Assembly: GCA_017609405.1 (NCBI GenBank)
Contig: JAFCDZ010000004.1
Span: 1 to 52,638, forward strand
Direction of reading: 5' to 3'
Source of the DNA: Candidatus Pacearchaeota archaeon
GTDB taxonomy: Archaea > Nanobdellota > Nanobdellia > Pacearchaeales > GW2011-AR1
DNA length: 52,638 nucleotides
Below the pieces are notes generated by a model, which was not told where the DNA came from, did no database searches, and saw only the letters and a list, made by a program, of their open reading frames with translations. The position numbers were made by a program, and so were the translations under genes. Positions 2,798 to 26,757 of this stretch are shown piece by piece; position 1 is the stretch's first letter, and the number at the start of each line of letters is the position of its first letter.

Positions 2798-3707
2798 GGT
2801 AACCTAACTTTTTTGCTATTTCTTTCCAACTATCAAAATGTTTTCCTCTTATTTTAGGATGTATTGAAGGATGATTTTCATCTGGATGTTTTTGTTTTTT
2901 CTTTGTTAAGTCTCTTGTTTCCCAATAATATTTATGATGGGCTTCTGAAATTGGTTTTCCTTTATATTTTTTGGATTTTGATGCATATTTTTCCCAATTT
3001 TTTCTATTCAAATCAGCAAACTTTTTCAGAAGTTTATTTTTGTGTTCAACATTAAATCCTATTTTCTCAAATTCTTCAGCCCATATTTTTATTTGATGTT
3101 CCTTGTAATTTCTCATTCCCCCCTTATAGAATTTTAAAGTAGGATCAACAATGTTTGGGTGAGCAAATCGTATTGTATGGATAGGAACATCTAAATCTTT
3201 TAATAGATTGGCAATATCAATGCAAAGATCCCAATTAGTCATAATCTCTATATAAACTCTATTTTCAAAATCTTTCCAAGCCACATTACTTTTTCTTATA
3301 TGAGCAGTAACATCGGCGATTCCTCTAAGAAATTCTATTTTAACATCTCTGGGTGCACTGAATATTTCTTTAGGTATCCTAAAATCTCTCCAGCTAATTT
3401 TATTTTTAAGATACGCATTTATTGTTCTTATTAGGTAATCTCCGTTAGGTTTTGAGAAAGATATGTGAGCAATATTTGGTTTTGAGGTGTCCCAATTCAT
3501 ATCTACCCCGACGAGTGGTTTTAACCTTCCAACAATATCTAACAAACTAGCTTTTATTGATTGTTGGGTATTCTCACCTTCAATTACCAAATTTTTATGA
3601 GGAATGTCTATTATTATCTCTGTTTCTTTATTACCTCTAATAATTTGTCCTTTCCCTACAATCATTCCAAGCAAATAAGCTATATCGGGATTTAACATTT
3701 TTATCAC
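2790..3707 (-). CDS. protein with two LAGLIDADG-like helices (candidate nuclease / restriction subunit)
   Basis: 305 aa. DIAYLLGMIVGKG near the N-terminus and IEFLRGIADVTAHI about 120 aa later resemble the two motif helices of a monomeric LAGLIDADG fold. It overlaps the methyltransferase gene by 4 nt. Confidence 0.35.
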   Translation of the reverse strand: MIKMLNPDIAYLLGMIVGKGQIIRGNKETEIIIDIPHKNLVIEGENTQQSIKASLLDIVGRLKPLVGVDMNWDTSKPNIAHISFSKPNGDYLIRTINAYLKNKISWRDFRIPKEIFSAPRDVKIEFLRGIADVTAHIRKSNVAWKDFENRVYIEIMTNWDLCIDIANLLKDLDVPIHTIRFAHPNIVDPTLKFYKGGMRNYKEHQIKIWAEEFEKIGFNVEHKNKLLKKFADLNRKNWEKYASKSKKYKGKPISEAHHKYYWETRDLTKKKQKHPDENHPSIHPKIRGKHFDSWKEIAKKLGYHE

Positions 3708-4513
3708 TTTTTGAATATAAGTATGTACTCATGTATTTTATTTACTCTAAATACAAACGGATAGCCTAATGGCCTCATATTATTATATTCTTTTTGCCTA
3801 TCCCATATTATTATATCGTCAAGCTCAAATCCTATTTCCTTCATCTTATTTACAATGTCCATATGAAATGGATAAAATTTAGATTTTTTGCGGATGTCCA
3901 TAACTACAATAATACAATACTTACCTTTCTTTAATACTTTGTAAACTCCAACAAATGCTTCCTTTAATTTTTCTAAAAATTTATCGTAGTCATGTATATT
4001 TCCTAAATCTTCTTCAGAATCGCTATACTTTCTAATCTGTTTTCTATCAGCAGAACGTACTTGTGTAAGTATATCCCAATATGGTGGAGAAGTTATTACT
4101 AAATCAACAGAATTTTCTGGTAATATTTTGGGTAATTCAAACACAGTTTTGTTATATATTTCTGGTTTAATTAAATCCTCTTTTGATTGATTTAAACTTA
4201 ATTGAACATTTCTTATTCTGTCTTTTGTTAATTTTACATATTCCTCCGATAATTCAAAACCAATTCCTTTCTTTCCCAGTTGATATGCTGACACTACTGT
4301 GCTGCCACTTCCTAAAAAAGGATCCAAAATGACTTCGCCTTTGTCTTTTGTAAAAATTTTAATGAGTCTAGAAGTTAATTTGGTAGGAAACATTGCAGGA
4401 TGTTTAAGTTTTCTTTCCTCACTTGTTTTTTCAATATCCCTCCAAATACTAAAAGAGTATTGTAACCACGTTTTTCCATCTAAATTGTTCATCCTTTTTT
4501 TCATTCTCACCAT
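3704..4513 (-). CDS. DNA methyltransferase, N4-cytosine/N6-adenine family (SPPY), motif order I then IV
   Basis: 269 aa. HPAMFP...ILDPFLGSGSTV (AdoMet motif I block) precedes DLVITSPPYWD (catalytic motif IV). Confidence 0.85.
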   Translation of the reverse strand: MVRMKKRMNNLDGKTWLQYSFSIWRDIEKTSEERKLKHPAMFPTKLTSRLIKIFTKDKGEVILDPFLGSGSTVVSAYQLGKKGIGFELSEEYVKLTKDRIRNVQLSLNQSKEDLIKPEIYNKTVFELPKILPENSVDLVITSPPYWDILTQVRSADRKQIRKYSDSEEDLGNIHDYDKFLEKLKEAFVGVYKVLKKGKYCIIVVMDIRKKSKFYPFHMDIVNKMKEIGFELDDIIIWDRQKEYNNMRPLGYPFVFRVNKIHEYILIFKK

Positions 4514-6207
4514 AAACTTTTTTCTGACATCAGTTTTTTTAATGAATCTTCAATGATCCTTCTTTCAGATTTGCTAATATCATATAGCTTATAAACATAA
4601 TTATCTAGTTCTCTAAGAAGTTTTTTCTTATCTCTTATTCTTTCTAATTTTTCAACAATCTTAATTACATTTTTTTGTTTCTTTTTATCAACCAATTTAA
4701 TAGGTATTTTACCAAGATATACATTATCGGTATGCATTGTTAATTTTGATTTGTTGTAAATTGCATACATTAAATAGAAATTGATAAGTTTAGAATTCAA
4801 TAATCCAAGAAGATATTTTATATCTATTGTTTTATTATGTACGACTATATTTGTTATGGTATCAAAAGTTAAACATCCTTCTTTATCAATAGCTGATATT
4901 ATTCCCGCTTCACTTGAAAAAATATTTTGTAAAATTATCTTTTCGTTTTTAATTAGCTCTAATTTTGGTGTGTTATTAACTGCTTTGTTTATGTCTATGT
5001 AGTATGTAATAGAATAAGAAAATTTAGAAATGTTATTTCCTTTAATTATTGGTTTATTATTCTTACTTTTTGTTTTGGAGATTAAAGAAGAATTTGGACT
5101 TATGGTAATCCCCCTAAATATCTCTGCCAGATTTTCTAACGGTTTTCCAGAATTATTTATTTTTTCTATTAATTCATAATGTGCCTTTTCCTCAAACATT
5201 AAGAAATTATTATATTTCTTGAATATTTCTTGTGGTACTAAAAATACTTTTTGTTCTTCTAAGGGTTTTTCTTTTTTTTCAAAAACTTTAATTAAAACTT
5301 TATGATTCTTTAATTCATTTTTGTTTCTTGTTTTTTTAATAAACAAAATAATCTGTTCCCCCCTTACCCCCTTAAAACATGAACCAAGATCATAAATATG
5401 CAATATTTTTGAATTCTCAAGTAAAAAAGCCCTTAATCTGGAATAAGAATTAACTCTCAATAATGTCTTTGGCAAAACAAAAGCCATTATTCCCCCATCC
5501 TTTAATAACTCAAAAGATTTAGCAATAACTAACGATGCCGCGTTTGTGCTTCCATTAGCAATTTTGGAGTATATAGATTCGTTTATGTCATAGTCCCGAC
5601 CATTTTTTAATGTTACATATGGCGGATTTCCAATTATAAAGTCAAATCCTCCATCTTTTAGAATCTCTGAAAACTCTTTTTCCCAATCGAATGCTTTATT
5701 ATCTATTTTTTTATTTCCAACAATAGAATTACCCGTTCTTATGTTCTTCTCTAGAATTCTTAAAGATTCTGTATTTTGTCCATTCCTTAACCAGAGATTA
5801 ATTCTGGTTATCTTTGTAGCAGAGTCATTTAAATCTACACCATAAATATTATTTAATGCGTTTTTGTTCAATCTCTTTAAGAAATTATACGCATTTACTA
5901 AGAAAACCCCACATCCACAAGTAGGATCCAAAATTTTGGAATCTGGTTTTATATTAAGATAATTAATCATATAATTGACAATTTCTTGAGGGGTGTAAAA
6001 TTGTCCTAAATTTTTTCGTTCTTCTTCCTTGATTAATCTTTCAAAAAGAGCCCCCAATGTATCTTCTTGGATGTTTAATAATTTCTGTTCTTTAATTTTG
6101 AGAATAACATTTTGTACAATCTCATCTTCGTATGGCATAGATTCTAATGTTGCTTCATCTATTCTAAGTACATCATCCTTCTTTTTTTGTAGTAAAATGG
6201 TTTCCAT
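4507..6207 (-). CDS. gamma-class N6-adenine DNA methyltransferase (Eco57I/TaqI-like) with C-terminal target-recognition region
   Basis: 566 aa. It shows GQFYTP, ILDPTCGCGVFL (motif I) and FIIGNPPYV (motif IV), followed by a long C-terminal region. Confidence 0.85.
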   Translation of the reverse strand: METILLQKKKDDVLRIDEATLESMPYEDEIVQNVILKIKEQKLLNIQEDTLGALFERLIKEEERKNLGQFYTPQEIVNYMINYLNIKPDSKILDPTCGCGVFLVNAYNFLKRLNKNALNNIYGVDLNDSATKITRINLWLRNGQNTESLRILEKNIRTGNSIVGNKKIDNKAFDWEKEFSEILKDGGFDFIIGNPPYVTLKNGRDYDINESIYSKIANGSTNAASLVIAKSFELLKDGGIMAFVLPKTLLRVNSYSRLRAFLLENSKILHIYDLGSCFKGVRGEQIILFIKKTRNKNELKNHKVLIKVFEKKEKPLEEQKVFLVPQEIFKKYNNFLMFEEKAHYELIEKINNSGKPLENLAEIFRGITISPNSSLISKTKSKNNKPIIKGNNISKFSYSITYYIDINKAVNNTPKLELIKNEKIILQNIFSSEAGIISAIDKEGCLTFDTITNIVVHNKTIDIKYLLGLLNSKLINFYLMYAIYNKSKLTMHTDNVYLGKIPIKLVDKKKQKNVIKIVEKLERIRDKKKLLRELDNYVYKLYDISKSERRIIEDSLKKLMSEKSLW

Positions 6208-7781: not shown

Positions 7782-7809
7782 AATTCTATTTATATTTGTA
7801 ATTTATAAA

Positions 7810-7870
7810 GGTTACTATACCTCCACTTTAAGACTAAATAGAAACCAAAATCTCACAATAGTTTATGTTA
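7810..7870 (+). repeat. 61-bp direct repeat, copy 1 (partner at 17409..17469)
   Basis: GGTTACTATACCTCCACTTTAAGACTAAATAGAAACCAAAATCTCACAATAGTTTATGTTA. It is 60/61 identical to copy 2, with the single mismatch at 7831 vs 17430. It starts 29 nt upstream of the xer ATG, and identity stops exactly after GTTA. Confidence 0.95.
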
Positions 7871-7877
7871 TATTCAA

Positions 7878-8254
7878 TTTCAGTTTCGCCCTTGATTAAG
7901 TTTTTTGTGTGTTTCAAGAACAAGTTTTTCTACTTCAGATCCACAAACTTCGCATGGTTCATTTTCTTCTTCACAACAATCATAATTGACTAAACAATTT
8001 AGACAATAATGCCACCATGCCTCTTCTTCATTTAATTTAGAGTTACAATTTGAACAAAAATAACCTTCTTGATAAACTTCAACTTTGTGTCCAGGTTTAA
8101 CTAACCTACATAATTCTGGCATGGCTAATTCCATAAATCTATACAGCTCAGTTTGTGGTATATTCTTTAATTCTTCTTCTAAATCTCTGATTGTTTTAAT
8201 CATATAAGATAGAAGTTTTATTTAAGTATTTAATTTTAACGGGCGAAACTGAAA
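7878..8254. repeat. unit A: perfect 14-bp inverted repeat pair enclosing one promoter+gene
   Basis: TTTCAGTTTCGCCC at 7878-7891 and GGGCGAAACTGAAA at 8241-8254 (14/14). The left arm starts 7 nt after the GTTA at 7867-7870. The right arm is followed by CTCTTCGGGATTT. Confidence 0.9.
7880..8203 (-). CDS. Cys-rich hypothetical protein (cargo of unit A)
   Basis: 107-aa ORF in an AT-rich background, with CSNC...CLNC...CC...CEVC clusters. Its last codons (GRN-stop) lie inside the left IR arm. Confidence 0.6.
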   Translation of the reverse strand: MIKTIRDLEEELKNIPQTELYRFMELAMPELCRLVKPGHKVEVYQEGYFCSNCNSKLNEEEAWWHYCLNCLVNYDCCEEENEPCEVCGSEVEKLVLETHKKLNQGRN

Positions 8255-8321
8255 CTCTTCGGGATTTCTTTCGCTTCGCTCAAGAAACTTAAATTATATG
8301 TATTATAAGCATTAGTTTTAC
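8255..8321 (+). repeat. junction repeat E1 (CTCTTCGG hairpin ... ATTAGTT end)
   Basis: Starts with CTCTTCGGGATTT. The hairpin GCGAAA(8243-8248)...C(TTCG)G...TTTCGC(8269-8274) spans the junction. Contains TTCGCTTCGCTC and ends with ATTAGTT (8311-8317). Confidence 0.6.
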
Positions 8322-8368: not shown

Positions 8369-9133
8369 ATGATGAAGGATTGGGAAATTGCTTTGCAAAA
8401 ATTTCTAAAAAAATGGGAAAATAAAAAGGAGGTAATTGGTGCGCTTGTTTGTGGAAGCTACATCACTGGAAATCCCAGCAAACATTCTGATATTGACATT
8501 CACATTATTTTAGATTCAAAAACTTCTTGGAGAGAAAGAGGTAATGAAATCATCAATGGAATTTTGATTGAATATTTTGCTAATCCTATAAAAAATATTA
8601 TGAATATCTTGAAGACGATTATAAACAAAGAAGGAGAGTTAATGCTCATATGTTTTGCACTGGCAAAGTTCTTTTTGATAAAACATGTGAATTAAAAAAA
8701 TTGATTAAGGATTCACAAAAATATCTCATAAAAAAATATCCTAAACAAAACAAAATACAGGTGGAATCTGCAAAGTATCATCTTTGGGGACACATGTGAT
8801 AATTTGGAGGAAGTTTTTGAAGCAAATGCAAAAGAATTCTTTTTTGTTTTCTATAATAACTTGAATTTTTTATTTGAAACATATGCGGAATTTTTACAAT
8901 TTGATTCAATACCTGTTCATAAATTAAGACGTTTTCTTGTAAATAAAAAAGACAAGAAAAAATATCTTATAAGTGATTTTCCCGATAAAAAATTTGTAAA
9001 ACTATTTGTAAGAGCTATTAATCTTAAAAATAAATCTAAAATGATGAAAGAGTATCAAAAACTAACAAAATATGTTTTTGATAGAATGGGAGGATTTAAT
9101 ATTGATGGTTGGAAAATCAAAACTCCTGCTTAA
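8369..9133 (+). pseudogene. nucleotidyltransferase (KNTase/ANT-like) gene disrupted by at least two frameshifts
   Basis: The N-terminal part (8369..8695) carries GSYITGNPSKHSDIDIH (GS...DxD NTase motif). The middle part reads on in another frame (..YEYLEDDYKQRRRVNAHMFCTGKVLFDKTCELKKL..). The C-terminal part is ORF 8804..9133. Confidence 0.6.
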
Positions 9134-9164: not shown

Positions 9165-9252
9165 CTGTCTCACTCAATACCCAAATATATTCTTGTAACT
9201 TCGTTACTTGCATAGTTCTTTCGGAAAAATTCATAACTTATAAAAATTAACT
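9165..9252 (+). repeat. junction repeat E2
   Basis: CTCACTCAATACCCAAAT, hairpin GTAAC-TTC-GTTAC (9195-9207), CTTTCGGAAAAATT, and the end ..TCATAACTTATAAAAATTAACT. It aligns with E3b/E4 (..TCATAACCGCAAAACGTTAGTT). Confidence 0.55.
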
Positions 9253-9267
9253 TCTTTTAAAATTAAT

Positions 9268-9804
9268 ATGGTAATAAAGATTGTAGGTAATAGAATTTAT
9301 TTAAAAGAAATGGATGAAAGTGATGCGAAAAAACTCCACGAATACTCAAAAGAACCAAAATTAAATGAGTTTTCAGGACCCTACAAAGCATCAGAATCAA
9401 TAGACAAGGCAAAAGAGTATATTAAAGAATGTAAAAAAAATATTTTAGAAAATAAATCTTATGTTTTAGGTATATATAAAAAAAATACAAACGAGTTTGT
9501 TGGAACAATAGGTTTTTTTGATTTAGACGATGAAAATAAAAGTGGGGAAATAGGATTTTGGATTGCTAGAAATTACTGGAATAGAGGTTATATGACAGAA
9601 GCAGTTAGTTTAATGACACATTTCATTTTCAAAGTTTTAAAATATCACAGAATTTGTGCTCACTTCCATGAATTAAATAAGGCAGTTGAAAGAGTCTTAA
9701 GTAAAGCAGGATATAAAAAAGAAGGGGAATTAAAAGAAGCACTTAAATCAAAAGAAGGTAAGTATTATAATGAGATTATTTATGGTATAACAAGTAATTC
9801 TTGA
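9268..9804 (+). CDS. GNAT family N-acetyltransferase (RimJ/RimL-like)
   Basis: 178 aa. It shows the typical IYLKEMDESDAKKLHEY N-terminus and the GFWIARNYWNRGYMTEA acetyl-CoA motif A region. Confidence 0.8.
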   Translation: MVIKIVGNRIYLKEMDESDAKKLHEYSKEPKLNEFSGPYKASESIDKAKEYIKECKKNILENKSYVLGIYKKNTNEFVGTIGFFDLDDENKSGEIGFWIARNYWNRGYMTEAVSLMTHFIFKVLKYHRICAHFHELNKAVERVLSKAGYKKEGELKEALKSKEGKYYNEIIYGITSNS

Positions 9805-17369: not shown

Positions 17370-17408
17370 TTTTGAGTTTGTTGAAAATCTCTATTTAGAT
17401 TTTAGAGG

Positions 17409-17469
17409 GGTTACTATACCTCCACTTTAGGACTAAATAGAAACCAAAATCTCACAATAGTTTATGTTA
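17409..17469 (+). repeat. 61-bp direct repeat, copy 2 (partner at 7810..7870)
   Basis: 60/61 identical to copy 1, in the same orientation and 9,599 bp downstream. It begins 40 nt after the dcd stop. Identity again stops right after GTTA (17466-17469). Confidence 0.95.
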
Positions 17470-17548
17470 AAGAAAATATTTCCACTTTCTCCGTCGCTGT
17501 TTTAACTTTTATCGTCGGAGACAAGTCTCAAATTCTTATTTTGATATC

Positions 17549-17621
17549 TTCGTTTAACGCTCCAATCTGAAATTGTTTTTGTTGGATGTGCAACTTCAGA
17601 TAACATCGCTGATTAAACGAA
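17549..17621. repeat. 73-bp imperfect palindrome directly downstream of the unit B ORF (attC-like in size and ends)
   Basis: Outer arms are TTCGTTTAA 17549-17557 and TTAAACGAA 17613-17621 (9/9). Inner arms are TCTGAA 17566-17571 and TTCAGA 17595-17600. The left end contains GTTTAAC (RYYYAAC-type box) and the right end ATTAAAC. Confidence 0.6.
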
Positions 17622-17633
17622 ATTAGTGAATTT

Positions 17634-17810
17634 TTATTCTATCTTTTTTCCAAAAAATATTCTTATCGAGAACAACCAGAAAATTATTGCAGAAATTAAT
17701 AAAACCCAGTAGGTTGTTGTTGCAATTCCCGAAATATTTCTAATCGTAAAAAGTGTTAGTGCAACACCAAATACGGATGCTCCATCGATAAATCTTCTGT
17801 CGATTTTCAT
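17634..17810 (-). CDS. 58-aa two-TM hypothetical protein (cargo of unit B)
   Basis: Below the track length cutoff. MKIDRRFIDGASVFGVALTLFTIRNISGIATTTYWVLLISAIIFWLFSIRIFFGKKIE. A TATA-like box (plus-strand CTATATAAAT, 17831-17840) lies about 25 nt upstream of the ATG. Confidence 0.45.
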   Translation of the reverse strand: MKIDRRFIDGASVFGVALTLFTIRNISGIATTTYWVLLISAIIFWLFSIRIFFGKKIE

Positions 17811-17901
17811 AGTTTTATTAATTTCTCAAACTATATAAATTTTATTGTTCTCTAAAAAATCCACTAACTACGATATCAAAGAATTCTCGAAAGTGGAAAT
17901 A

Positions 17902-18126
17902 CTCTTCGGAATTTTTCCACTTCGTGAAAAACCGTCTTGCAGACTATTCCTCGTCCTCGCTTTCAGATCGGATTCCTTAACACACATTAAACGGTTCGCT
18001 CCGTTGCACTCGCTCACCCATATTTTTTGCTTCGCAAAAAACACTCGAGGTCACTTCGCTCCGCTCGTTTTGGCCCAAATTCTTGCTTCGCAAGAACTTC
18101 TCATAACCGCAAAACGTTAGTTTCAA
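17902..18126 (+). repeat. junction repeat E3 (two tandem, degenerate copies E3a/E3b)
   Basis: Starts with CTCTTCGGAATTT. Contains GGTTCGCTCCGTTGCACTCGCTCACCCATAT plus hairpin TTTTTGC-TTC-GCAAAAA (18024-18040). This is followed by GAGGTCACTTCGCTCCGCTCG..GGCCCAAAT plus hairpin TTCTTGC-TTC-GCAAGAA (18080-18096). Ends with GTTAGTTTCAA. Confidence 0.7.
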
Positions 18127-18419
18127 TCAGAAGCCGGCTCTTGCTGTTCTACAAGTAACTTTTCCAATTCATATTTTGGATGAATTTTAAAAAGCCTATA
18201 AGAAATAAAATGATGCTTTCCAGTTACAATATCTCCAATCATTTCTACGGAAAATGGGATGATTATTGGTGCTAAATATGGGCAGTGATATGTTGCGACT
18301 GTGCTTAAACCTAATCCCAATAGACCATAAATTCTGTTTCCTACATTGTACATTATTGTATGTCCATCAATTTTCCTAATTTGATACTGCAAATCTTCTA
18401 TTTGTTCATCTAAAGTCAT
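18123..18419 (-). CDS. hypothetical membrane-associated protein (cargo of unit C)
   Basis: 98-aa ORF with a hydrophobic core (IYGLLGLGLSTVATYHCPYLAPIIIPF). Its last codons (PASD-stop) lie inside the left IR arm. A TATA-like box (plus-strand TAGTATATAA, 18441-18450) lies about 25 nt upstream of the ATG. Confidence 0.55.
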   Translation of the reverse strand: MTLDEQIEDLQYQIRKIDGHTIMYNVGNRIYGLLGLGLSTVATYHCPYLAPIIIPFSVEMIGDIVTGKHHFISYRLFKIHPKYELEKLLVEQQEPASD

Positions 18420-18469
18420 AATTAAATAGTAACTGGAAAGTAGTATATAAAGTTAACGCCGGCTTCTGA
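18127..18469. repeat. unit C: perfect 12-bp inverted repeat pair enclosing one promoter+gene
   Basis: TCAGAAGCCGGC at 18127-18138 and GCCGGCTTCTGA at 18458-18469 (12/12). The left arm starts 7 nt after GTTA (18116-18119). The right arm is followed by CTTTGGATTTT. Confidence 0.9.
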
Positions 18470-18625
18470 CTTTGGATTTTTTGCCTTCACCCAACGTTGC
18501 ACTAAAATCCAACCTCTAACGAGGGAAACTAACAGCGATTAAGAGGCTACGCTCGGTTGCACCTCGCTCCACCCAAATTCTTCACTATGTTCGGAACTTC
18601 GTTAAATCGCATATGTTAGTTGCAA
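18470..18625 (+). repeat. junction repeat E4 (three consecutive hairpins)
   Basis: Hairpin TTGGATTTT 18472-18480 / AAAATCCAA 18513-18521, then CCTC-TAAC-GAGG, then the long imperfect palindrome 18527-18621. Contains CTCGCTCCACCCAAAT and ends with GTTAGTTGCAA. Confidence 0.7.
18527..18621. repeat. 95-bp attC-like imperfect palindrome
   Basis: AACTAAC (18527-18533) pairs with GTTAGTT (18615-18621), and GCGATT (18535-18540) pairs with AATCGC (18605-18610). The spacers are unequal (1 vs 4 nt). The G+C-rich interior 18543-18574 is about 69% G+C by my count. Confidence 0.55.
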
Positions 18626-19079
18626 TTTGAGATTTGGGCTAAAAAATAGTCAAATTAAAAATTTGAGTAATTATAAAAAAGAAGTTGGCATCTAAAGATT
18701 TTCAGTAAACGAAAGATAAGCTTGAGTTTTGTATGCATTTCTTACTCTGTCGCCCCATTCTGCTCTTTCTGAGGGGCTCAATCCGTTATCTCTATCATCC
18801 AAAACTCTTCTCGCTGTTTCTTCAGCAGTTATTGCACCTATATCATATCTACCGCCTTTCGCTCTTTCTATTGTAGCAACTGCTGTGCTCAATGCAGTTC
18901 TAGATGCTTGTCCTCTTTTAAATGCTTGCATATACAATGCTTGCAGATACATATCTGCGATTCCTTGTGACATTTTAATTCACCTTATATCTAGTTGCAA
19001 TAGCAAGTATTTAAATCTTTCTGTTATTCACTACTATGAAGATACAACGCCAACTTCTAAGGTACGCCCAAATCTCAAA
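18626..19079. repeat. unit D: perfect 14-bp outer plus 10-bp inner inverted repeat pairs enclosing one gene
   Basis: Outer pair: TTTGAGATTTGGGC 18626-18639 / GCCCAAATCTCAAA 19066-19079 (14/14). Inner pair: AGAAGTTGGC 18680-18689 / GCCAACTTCT 19049-19058 (10/10). The outer left arm starts 7 nt after GTTA (18615-18618). The outer right arm is followed by CTTCTTCGCC. Confidence 0.9.
18692..18973 (-). CDS. Ala/Arg-rich hypothetical protein of foreign composition (cargo of unit D)
   Basis: 93-aa ORF with 3 Lys, 10 Arg and many Ala, unlike the Lys/Ile/Asn-rich neighbours. It is visibly more G+C-rich. GGTGA lies 7 nt upstream of the ATG. Confidence 0.55.
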   Translation of the reverse strand: MSQGIADMYLQALYMQAFKRGQASRTALSTAVATIERAKGGRYDIGAITAEETARRVLDDRDNGLSPSERAEWGDRVRNAYKTQAYLSFTENL

Positions 19080-26399: not shown

Positions 26400-26450
26400 A
26401 TTTTAAAAAAGTTTTTTTATTTTATAAGTTTTGTGAAACCCTTCTAAAAC

Positions 26451-26686
26451 TTCGAATCCAAATGCCCGAACCAGGATTCGGGCCTCATATCAAAGATATT
26501 CGACCTGCTTCGCCCAAGCGTGGTAAGCAGGCCTCACAAAGTTCGACCTGATACGCTTACTCACTTCGTTCGTAATCAAATTAGGCCTCACCAAAGCACT
26601 GAAGCTCGACCTGATACGCTTACTCACTTCGTTCGTAATCATATCAAACCTAAAGGTTCGAATCCAAATGCCCGAACCAGGATTCG
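26451..26686. repeat. 30-bp perfect direct repeat pair duplicating the 3' end of tRNA-Arg plus its flank
   Basis: TTCGAATCCAAATGCCCGAACCAGGATTCG at 26451-26480 and 26657-26686 (30/30). The second copy covers the last 18 nt of the tRNA plus 12 nt of trailer. Confidence 0.95.
26543..26641. repeat. 36-bp perfect tandem-type direct repeat (period 63) between the two tRNA-end copies
   Basis: TCGACCTGATACGCTTACTCACTTCGTTCGTAATCA at 26543-26578 and 26606-26641. A third, diverged unit at 26499-26540 starts with the same TCGACCTG. All units recall the T-arm CAGGTTCGAA read on the tRNA strand. Confidence 0.9.
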
Positions 26687-26757
26687 AACCTGGATTCCAA
26701 CCTGTTTGCAGAGCAAACTTCCGCAAGGTTGTGTTCTATCCCTTGAACTATTCGGGC
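26669..26757 (-). tRNA. tRNA-Arg (GCG) with a ~17-nt intron at the canonical 37/38 position
   Basis: Hand fold: GCCCGAA-T-A-GTTC-AAGGGATA-GAAC-A-CAACC-TTGCGG[AAGTTTGCTCTGCAAAC]A-GGTTG-GAAT-CCAGG-TTCGAAT-CCTGG-TTCGGGC-A. The intron forms GTTTGC-TCT-GCAAAC. A TATA-like TTTATAAAG lies about 25 nt upstream. Confidence 0.85.

Follow-up and report, generated by a model that had tools for sequence, protein, structure and literature searches.

Directly upstream of a tyrosine recombinase gene, a short open reading frame is enclosed by an exact inverted repeat, and the locus raises the question of what kind of genetic unit this is and how it relates to the enzyme next to it. The question was addressed in a window of 52,638 nucleotides, by which we mean the whole stretch of DNA analyzed, and in loci from related genomes and metagenomes. 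The window is archaeal, has a G+C content of ~29%, and contains an intron-containing tRNA.

The comparisons set out here led us to conclude that the repeat-bounded unit (unit A) is probably a gene cassette that belongs to an integron-like system of gene capture, linked to Xer/dif, in a DPANN archaeon of the Pacearchaeota type. The features of the locus are listed in Table 1.

Unit A is delimited by an exact 14/14 inverted repeat, the left arm of which follows GTTA (7867-7870) and the heptanucleotide TATTCAA, that is, at a 7-nt offset, and the right arm of which runs into CTCTTCGGGATTT (8255-8267). The 8-mer CTCTTCGG comes after the right arms of both unit A and unit B (17902) and occurs three times on the + strand and not at all on the - strand of the window. 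No further copies of the unit A arm at <3 mismatches were found in the window. The same register is kept by the three units at 17.4-19.1 kb and by at least 12 units of related genomes; units B, C, and D each have their own distinct arms (17477/17889, 18127/18458, and 18626/19066, respectively). These observations reproduce what the first-pass annotation had described, namely the 14/14 repeat, its 7-nt register to GTTA, the CTCTTCGG after the right arm, and the offset common to units A-D. The local hairpin that it proposed, formed by the right arm, CTCTTCGG, and TTTCGC (8269-8274, 3' of the right arm), is present in the minimum-free-energy fold but is marginal (z -2.26, with 5 of 200 shuffles folding too), and TTTCGC itself, taken there for a partial third copy of the arm, is more plausibly interpreted as what remains of a conserved recombination-site hairpin. 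A GTTA immediately within the right arm, as seen in units A and C, did not prove to be a general feature. The array of units B-D contains the only attC-like site of the window that is intact (18522-18625), as well as a composite site (18031-18126).

Table 1. Features of the recombinase-proximal patch and of the second array in the window.
Feature	Position	Strand	Remarks
XerA-family tyrosine recombinase, 267 aa	6978..7781	-	transcribed away from the cassettes
Resident region R1 (attI/dif-like)	7788..7870	+	direct repeat with 17387-17469
GTTATATTCAA, crossover core and right-arm-like 11-mer	7867..7877	+	left boundary of cassette A
Left inverted-repeat arm, TTTCAGTTTCGCCC	7878..7891	+	
Cargo ORF, 107 aa, Cys-rich small protein	7880..8203	-	stop codon inside the left arm
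AT-rich region upstream of the cargo	8204..8240	-	TATA-like TTAAATA ~25 nt before the ATG; conserved in L164-L167
Right inverted-repeat arm, GGGCGAAACTGAAA (reverse complement of the left arm)	8241..8254	+	
Degenerate attC-like site E1	8255..8321	+	compared with the intact cassette in L164-L167
Second cassette cargo, Pol-beta-type nucleotidyltransferase region in three ORFs	8369..9133	+	Pfam Polbeta/NTP_transf_2
attC 3'-half remnant E2	~9170..9225	+	CCCAAAT at 9180, ACTTCGTTACT at 9198, GTTC core at 9215-9218
Resident region, second copy R2	17387..17469	+	followed by units B-D
Units B (17466-17901), C (18116-18469), and D (18615-19079)	17466..19079	+	

The unit A cassette was recovered from four other metagenome contigs (L164-L167) with a 95% identical protein and identical arms, and at least 10 short contigs encode the 95%-identical cargo protein (P0121). 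The window and L164-L167 present five different left neighbors, comprising three different attC 3' ends, one contig ending after 8 nt, and the xer-proximal region of the window, and in all five the identity begins exactly at GTTA. At this boundary, L164-L167 share an identical ...TTGAATATAAC end, beyond which the sequence differs in each context. The block conserved among the five copies reaches 11 nt beyond the left arm and, to the next GTTA, ~160 nt beyond the right arm. In the intact copies, the right arm is followed by CTCTTCGGGATTTTTCGCCTTCGGCGAAAACC..., then by R'' GAATATAAC, a full attC-like site, and the next GTTA, and this R'' is perfectly complementary (9/9 positions) to GTTATATTC, with which the cassette itself starts. 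The identity of the cassette and its boundary are well supported by this comparison. The earlier description of unit A as a cassette-like unit is upheld, but the mobile block extends from GTTA to the next GTTA and includes the attC-like site, rather than running from arm to arm.

The window copy matches the intact copies on its right side only up to CTCTTCGGGATTT. Site E1 retains this linker, a distal hairpin remnant (8265-8287), an L' remnant, and a mutated core with right arm, ATTAGTTTTAC (8311-8321); a deletion has removed R'', L'', and the first of the inner hairpins. A 166-nt contig of an independent run matches positions 8136-8301 exactly, which rules out that the degenerate state of the junction arose in the assembly of this record. 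Unit A is probably now fixed and immobile, since its own attC-like site has been largely deleted. The sequencing runs containing this genome are shallow (word shares of 0.05-0.12, contigs at 2-5x) and yielded exact fragments and no informative excision or circle joints. The unit A junction (E1) gave no covariance-model match at E<=10 and E2 gave no full match, and both were compared by hand and by alignment only; in these comparisons, the junction repeats E1 and E2 noticed in the first-pass annotation proved to be what is left of attC-like 3' halves.

Homologues less similar to the cargo (78% and 70% identity) reside in ordinary chromosomal neighborhoods without arms in three further loci, one of which keeps a relic of the 3' arm region, and therefore the cargo gene family is not exclusively cassette-borne. 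Relatives with the ORF and no arms, which had been proposed as evidence against a cassette, were seen among these distant homologues; the cassette copies in L164-L167 keep the arms. As already described, the Cys-rich ORF finishes in the left arm. Alignments of the cargo protein show nine invariant cysteines (C32, C50, C53, C67, C70, C76, C77, C84, and C87). Its AlphaFold2 model (pLDDT 86) had no match among PDB folds at E<=0.001, and the protein falls into no Pfam, NCBIfam, or PADLOC family. The AT-rich region upstream of the ORF, judged by its sequence, is a putative promoter of the cassette's own gene.

The nucleotidyltransferase region behind unit A carries a frameshift at a G4 run (8786-8789), and its distal part aligns with ~160-aa homologues. 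In relatives, an additional A follows position 8589 and would bring the first two frames together, and the A6 run at this position (8590-8595) is probably the place of a second frameshift. In one related locus, the two parts are separate genes; the region therefore represents a single gene that has been frameshifted twice or two genes with one frameshift between them in total, and the decay claimed for it is evident from at least one frameshift. No arms were detected for the nucleotidyltransferase cassette, the best candidate having 5 mismatches in 14. Site E2 was assigned as the 3' half of an attC-like site because it keeps CCCAAAT, ACTTCGTTACT, and the GTTC core. The GNAT gene that follows (9268-9804) may or may not be a member of the array, and the acylphosphatase gene beyond it is syntenic with xerA in locus L002.

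Between the right arm and the next GTTN, the junctions of the arrays follow one order of elements: small hairpins, often TTCG- or TACG-capped, R'' (NNNNN-NAAC), L'', a TTGCA-looped hairpin, CCACCCAAAT, another hairpin, ACTTC, L', (G/A)AT, and GTTN. A covariance model built here from seven sites retrieved 43 sites in the window and the loci. In the alignment of these 43 sites, 89.8% of the cells are paired, compared to 64.1% in shuffles, the covariation score is 0.582, compared to 0.154 in shuffles and 0.07-0.12 in slid-partner controls, and double changes occur in 22 of the 26 pairs of the site structure; these counts were taken from a model-fitted alignment, a procedure that favors the structure, yet the margin is still large. 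By this model, the junctions form the foldable R''-L''...L'-R' hairpin that defines attC sites.

In integrons, complementarity between the inverse core and the start of the same cassette is the classical argument for placing the crossover between G and TT (G/TT). The same complementarity was observed here. In 18 cassettes, the 5 nt beyond the core matched the cassette's own start at a mean of 3.7/5 positions and the start of the next cassette at 1.7/5, the own start being the better match in 15 of the 18, and the fourth core base (GTT followed by A, C, or G) covaries with the cassette's own R''. From the own-start match and the fourth-base covariation it follows that the crossover lies to the left of core position 4. 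An insertion site beside the recombinase gene, with its boundary at G/TT as in integrons, is thus present, the crossover itself being resolved only to within TGTT.

The recombinase matches Pfam Phage_integrase (1.7e-44), passes the NCBIfam model recomb_XerA_Arch (253.9 bits, cutoff 220), and fails the integron integrase model integrase_gron (212 bits in two stretches, cutoff 265). Its best PDB matches are the XerA proteins of P. abyssi and T. acidophilum, and it aligns over its full length with the former (4a8e). In contrast, the alignment with the integron integrase VchIntIA (2a3v) breaks where query residues 175-185 face chain residues 184-238, so that 10 recombinase residues stand opposite 54 IntI residues; therefore the IntI-specific additional domain near patch III, the mark of IntI-type integrases, is absent from the recombinase. 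Metagenome-assembled genomes of DPANN archaea, named as Pacearchaeota, Woesearchaeota, or Nanoarchaeota, encode dozens of homologues that are 70-75% identical to it. The neighboring recombinase is a conserved Pace-/Woesearchaeota XerA. Its XerA model score, PDB matches, and conservation across Pacearchaeota correspond to the host Xer enzyme on which integrative mobile elements exploiting Xer (IMEX) rely.

The resident region R1 between xerA and unit A is a near copy of R2, with 74 of 83 positions identical and 60 of 61 in the last 61 nt, and R2 carries its array without an adjacent recombinase. R1 comprises a left-arm-like 11-mer, AAATCTCACAA (7848-7858), an 8-nt center, TAGTTTAT (7859-7866), and the core GTTA, which lies 86 nt from the xer ATG; the resident site of the window thus reads AAATCTCACAA + TAGTTTAT + GTTATATTCAA, with a degenerate left arm. 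A TATA-like box at ~7800-7809 within R1 is a putative xer promoter. As a single strand, R1 is unstructured (z +0.98) and forms no hairpin. 

A GTTN core is located ~85-95 nt upstream of the xer start in ~18/19 close relatives (recombinase 60-75% identical), and behind it each of these relatives has a different cargo. The comparison of xer-proximal regions proposed in the first-pass annotation thus revealed a changing cargo beside a conserved recombinase, as anticipated, but no fixed 61-bp sequence: the repeat is real within the window and varies between genomes, only the xer promoter, the left-arm-like element, and the core being conserved. The same comparison supports the second short cassette array that had been postulated beside the recombinase. 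Several contigs of relatives stop at or just past the core, one of them exactly at ...ATATGTT, which is what a population-variable locus would produce.

Upstream of xerA in at least ten of the loci, we found the pattern of GTTA, 7 nt (mostly NNNNCAA), an arm, and, further on, the reverse-complement arm with CT(C/T)T, always on the strand opposite xerA and each time with its own arm sequence and its own cargo. The consensus GTTN-N4-CAA holds for at least 25 cassette starts. Locus L002 has ATTA in place of the core and no cassette. In the first scans of xer-selected loci, 33/36 attC-like matches were on the strand opposite xerA and nearly all were upstream of it, an adjacency that is partly a selection effect, as the loci were mostly fetched via the recombinase. 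The contigs fetched via cargo genes were short and had no xerA, and an xer-independent sampling of arrays in IMG/VR by the junction pattern returned four chance matches, no covariance-model match, and no recombinase.

In six loci with XerA proteins of ~41-45% identity, a palindromic dif-like site lies upstream of xerA in the 11-6-11 layout AACTTCGTATAA - 6 nt - TTATACGAAC(TT). It would be a dif-type site and, as regards chromosome dimer resolution, a candidate only. The left-arm motif ACTTCNYTWAA precedes GTTN by 6-8 nt in 40 of the 43 attC-like sites, and two loci carry (T)TCGTATAA + 6 nt + GTTN at the cassette entry point. Because the left-arm motif is shared with the dif-like site, ACTTC plus L' of the junctions is considered homologous to the left arm of dif. 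Where the right arm would lie, the junctions have GTTN-N4-CAA, which is only loosely similar to TTATACGAAC. The 7-nt offset is explained in the same terms, since GTTA plus 7 nt makes up the right-arm-like 11-mer and the cassette-specific arms start just outside it. The deduced crossover falls on the border of the central region and the right arm, and it is at the border of the central region and an arm that tyrosine recombinases cleave. In addition, TTATGTTATAT (7861-7871) resembles TTATGTTAAAT, which we take to be the XerD arm of E. coli. Counted over the whole window with one mismatch allowed, the left-arm motif (43 observed, 42.8 expected) is uninformative in this AT-rich DNA. According to a review, att stem-loops are also bound by XerA of P. 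abyssi, though less tightly. A literature search returned no published link between XerA and archaeal attC arrays.

These data bear on the strongest competing explanation, according to which the cluster is an ordinary archaeal CALIN (a cluster of attC sites without an integrase gene) served in trans by a classical IntI, and XerA is a housekeeping dimer resolvase whose proximity is incidental or reflects a dif hot spot. Archaeal integrons have been documented with 539 attCs, six IntIs in 75 genomes, and mostly CALINs, and the tabulated cases include MAGs from Pacearchaeales and Woesearchaeales in which 3-4 attCs occur and IntI is absent (Ghaly et al., 2022; PMC9668308). Archaeal attCs were recombined by bacterial IntI1 in the same study (PMC9668308), and the R''/L''/L'/R' organization and GTTN core of the sites described above are likewise those expected from a CALIN. 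We nevertheless consider this explanation unlikely, since the core keeps a fixed distance from xerA across recombinases of 40-75% identity, the sites have a constant orientation relative to xerA, and 40/43 junctions carry the dif-like left arm. Moreover, no IntI-type gene was found in the 52-kb window or the fetched flanks, and only six IntIs were found among the 75 archaeal integron-bearing genomes.

The inverted-repeat arms directly adjoin the 11-mer, at a constant offset of 0, in 12 of the tested boundaries. Their first base is T, and their last three are mostly GCC or GGC. About half of the tested cassette boundaries have no detectable arms, and therefore the arms are not obligatory. Two loci share the same 13-nt arm with unrelated cargo. 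TATA-like boxes, presumably acting as promoters, precede the cargo ORFs. When the junction of a circularized intact unit A was folded in silico as a single strand, the structure reached -54.6 kcal/mol (z -10.3) and paired the arms (14 bp), R'' with its own R', and L'' with L' in one compound structure. On this modeling, the arms may be the outer stem of a recombination structure.

An alternative is that the arms act in RNA, as processing, stabilizing, or circularization stems, and that unit A is simply a gene with structured flanks. The ORF is indeed bracketed by arms, and many junction hairpins have UNCG-type loops (TTCG, TACG) on the + strand. On the other hand, the TATA-like box of the cargo is inside the right arm, so that the mRNA would not be expected to include the two arms together, and the cargo of arm-bearing cassettes is antisense in 10 cases and sense in 6, yet the register of the arms to GTTN never changes. 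Arms that lie 40 nt apart are also present in an ORF-less cassette of 112 nt, and no Rfam family was detected in the cassette regions at either gathering or E-value thresholds. A function in RNA is thus very improbable as the main explanation.

A small transposon or MITE with the 14-bp arms as terminal inverted repeats would likewise appear as a short ORF flanked by inverted repeats. This possibility is scarcely credible, since the arms differ between units and form no TIR family, the conserved block reaches beyond both arms, and neither a transposase nor a target duplication was found; family-wide TIRs bounding the unit and a target-site duplication, by which such elements are recognized, are both missing here. 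Finally, a chance inverted repeat has practically no standing and is refuted, for although many 11- to 13-nt AT-rich inverted repeats arise by chance in the window, the number of register-constrained units (GTTA + 7 nt + exact arm of >=12 nt whose reverse complement lies 60-1500 nt away) is 5, whereas 200 dinucleotide shuffles gave 0.32 on average and never more than 3, the arms have 50% G+C in a genome of 29% G+C, and identical arms occur in four other contigs.

Under the preferred reading of a Xer/dif-linked gene cassette, a complete cassette would consist, from the xerA side, of G/TTN-N4-CAA, a cassette-specific left arm of 10-18 nt, a cargo that may point either way and probably has a promoter of its own, and the complementary right arm, followed by CTCT with one to three small hairpins and then by the attC-like hairpin site. 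The latter would be composed of R'' (ending in NAAC), L'', two inner hairpins, ACTTCNYTWAA overlapping L', a 6- to 8-nt center, and the next GTTN. Recombination would take place within or beside TGTT, at the border of the central region and the right arm, which corresponds to the G/TT point of integrons. Unit A would have entered the resident site directly upstream of xerA, and the greater part of its attC-like site would have been lost later; the nucleotidyltransferase cassette that follows is decaying as well. 

The arms, which start 1 nt beyond the 11-bp right arm, would in a single-stranded circle extend the R''/R' and L''/L' helices into one long stem. Only excision as a circle, or looping-out of the cargo from an array in single-stranded form, would make this stem complete. 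A circle formed by the intact relatives of unit A should have the joint ...AACGGCATATG/TTATATTCAATTTCAG. In this mechanism, XerA is the presumed catalyst, and folded single-stranded DNA its presumed substrate. A more far-reaching version holds that DPANN gene capture runs on the housekeeping XerA, with the xerA-upstream site serving both as a dif-type site and as the cassette entry, the attC-like sites acting as folded mimics of dif, and the arms locking the circle. We consider the chances of this version to be evenly balanced; if true, it would describe an integron without an integron integrase, either as a convergent invention or as a living model of the Xer-like ancestor of IntI integrons.

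The system shares with integrons a tyrosine recombinase gene divergent from the adjacent insertion site, tandem single-gene cassettes separated by imperfect-palindrome R''-L''...L'-R' sites, the GTTN core with an inverse core complementary to the cassette's own start, a crossover at or beside G/TT, and a site structure kept by compensatory changes. In contrast to integrons, the recombinase is XerA-type, without the IntI-specific additional domain, and this extra domain is held to enable IntI to use folded attC hairpins. Furthermore, the sites are longer (~95-180 nt) and have two inner hairpins and a conserved dif-left-arm motif, and an extra, cassette-specific outer stem, formed by the arms, surrounds the cargo. 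The integron arrangement of co-oriented, promoterless cassettes behind a common Pc is not seen here, as the cargo occurs in either orientation, apparently with its own promoters, and no common Pc-type promoter was identified.

IMEX, especially CTX-phi, have no recombinase of their own and integrate by a dif-like site of the host Xer, and the single-stranded DNA of CTX-phi folds into a dif-like hairpin. The units described here resemble them in lacking a recombinase of their own and in forming tandem arrays at the site, and they may also resemble them in integrating beside a dif-like site of the host Xer, in having dif-like junctions (arm, 6- to 8-nt center, arm), and, as with CTX-phi, in that a folded hairpin mimicking the Xer site would be the substrate. 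They differ from IMEX in being single-gene cassettes of 0.1-2.3 kb in integron-like arrays rather than phages or islands, and in having an archaeal host with a single XerA rather than XerC/XerD and a site immediately upstream of xerA. The pdif modules of Acinetobacter plasmids are small gene modules between Xer-type sites in changing contexts and are similar in this respect, whereas their sites are inverted and those found here are direct, hairpin-forming, and located beside the recombinase gene. Standard tools would file the 17.4-19.1 kb array and similar Pacearchaeales and Woesearchaeales arrays as CALINs; unlike CALINs, the cluster adjoins a candidate recombinase and a resident site and is not orphaned. 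What is new here is an integron-like array that has an apparently dif-like resident site and junctions and whose neighboring XerA is without the IntI domain.

For Pace- and Woesearchaeota, attC clusters thereby acquire a consistent neighboring XerA with a resident site, and their junctions carry the dif-like arm of that enzyme family. The region upstream of xerA emerges as a hypervariable accessory-gene locus in very small genomes, at which many assemblies break. Taken together, the results suggest that integron-like gene capture in these archaea is carried out by an ordinary Xer/dif enzyme rather than by a specialized integron integrase. Should XerA prove to be the catalyst, this would account for the orphan arrays found in DPANN archaea, and one small enzyme with sites of ~100 nt would constitute a minimal system of hairpin-site recombination. 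Integron integrases are thought to derive from Xer-like recombinases, and such a system would bear on the origin of integrons and of their cassettes.

Among metagenome loci of relatives (L-numbers), an identical 13-nt arm, TCACGAGAACGCC, is common to two cassettes of L003 and L039 whose cargo is unrelated and whose right-arm 7-mers and linkers differ. Since the same arm brackets unrelated cargo and cassette arms show family resemblances (T...GCC), the arms are not simply derived from the cargo. The L005 array, which adjoins xerA and comprises at least eight cassettes, also holds two copies of a roughly 112-nt cassette that lacks an ORF and has a full attC-like site and 10-nt arms separated by 40 nt.

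A homologue of the cargo of unit A, the cassette upstream of xerA in the window, was found in L168 (78% identical), flanked by eIF-6 and aspartate decarboxylase genes. It is without a 5' arm and without an attC, and its 3' flank, ATCAAGAACGAAACTCAGGTTGAAAT, is similar to the cassette's arm plus 7-mer; the homologue is either a source gene or a decayed insertion. In L164, an intact unit A cassette is adjoined by genes for a 974-aa ResIII helicase, an 8xMP protein and a ThsB-TIR-like protein, which are defence-type genes at the array border. The nucleotidyltransferase region, the second cassette cargo of the window, has two frame breaks, each inside a homopolymer run, the first of which is A7 in related contigs; the breaks represent either sequencing error or genuine decay.

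The attI/dif-like resident region is present in two direct-orientation copies 9.6 kb apart, with cores identical at 60 of 61 positions, and the housekeeping genes for GlyRS, tRNA-Met, S17e, tRNA-splicing endonuclease and dCTP deaminase lie between them. Such an arrangement would be expected if a circle bearing a single site of this kind had integrated at the xer-proximal site, which may be how the duplication arose. Six Woesearchaeota-type relatives (L012, L020, L024, L029, L062, and L102) carry a palindromic dif-like site, AACTTCGTATAA-N6-TTATACGAAC, directly upstream of xerA (about 40-70 nt). The dif site of Thermococcales has been reported as not adjoining xerA (PMC2958812).

Elsewhere in the window, two methyltransferase genes are separated from the cassettes by the xerA-RNase H pair and lie past it, and an intron-containing tRNA is preceded by two direct-repeat pairs (42-50 nt, 90% identity) that look like duplicated tRNA fragments.

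Locations of features in the window and in relatives
Feature	Source	Position	Detail
Methyltransferase genes	window	3704-6207	Eco57I/MmeI-type N6-MTase fusion (566 aa); N4/N6 MTase
Resident region	window	7788-7870; 17387-17469	
Homopolymer runs	window	8590-8595; 8786-8789	A6; G4
Direct-repeat pairs	window	26444/26650; 26539/26602	repeats and tRNA together: 26444-26757
Intron-containing tRNA	window	26669-26757	
Shared-arm cassettes	L003; L039	4982-5583; 533-948	
ORF-less cassette	L005	7468-7681 and 3845-4058 (minus strand)	
Cargo homologue	L168	3960-4400	
Defence-type genes	L164	865-4537	
Contig end	L084	1-89	...ATATGTT

The xer-proximal core is a frequent end point of metagenome contigs, which stop at the core or just past it (L084, L007, L008, L088, and L090). 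Ends of this kind fit a first cassette that varies between strains.
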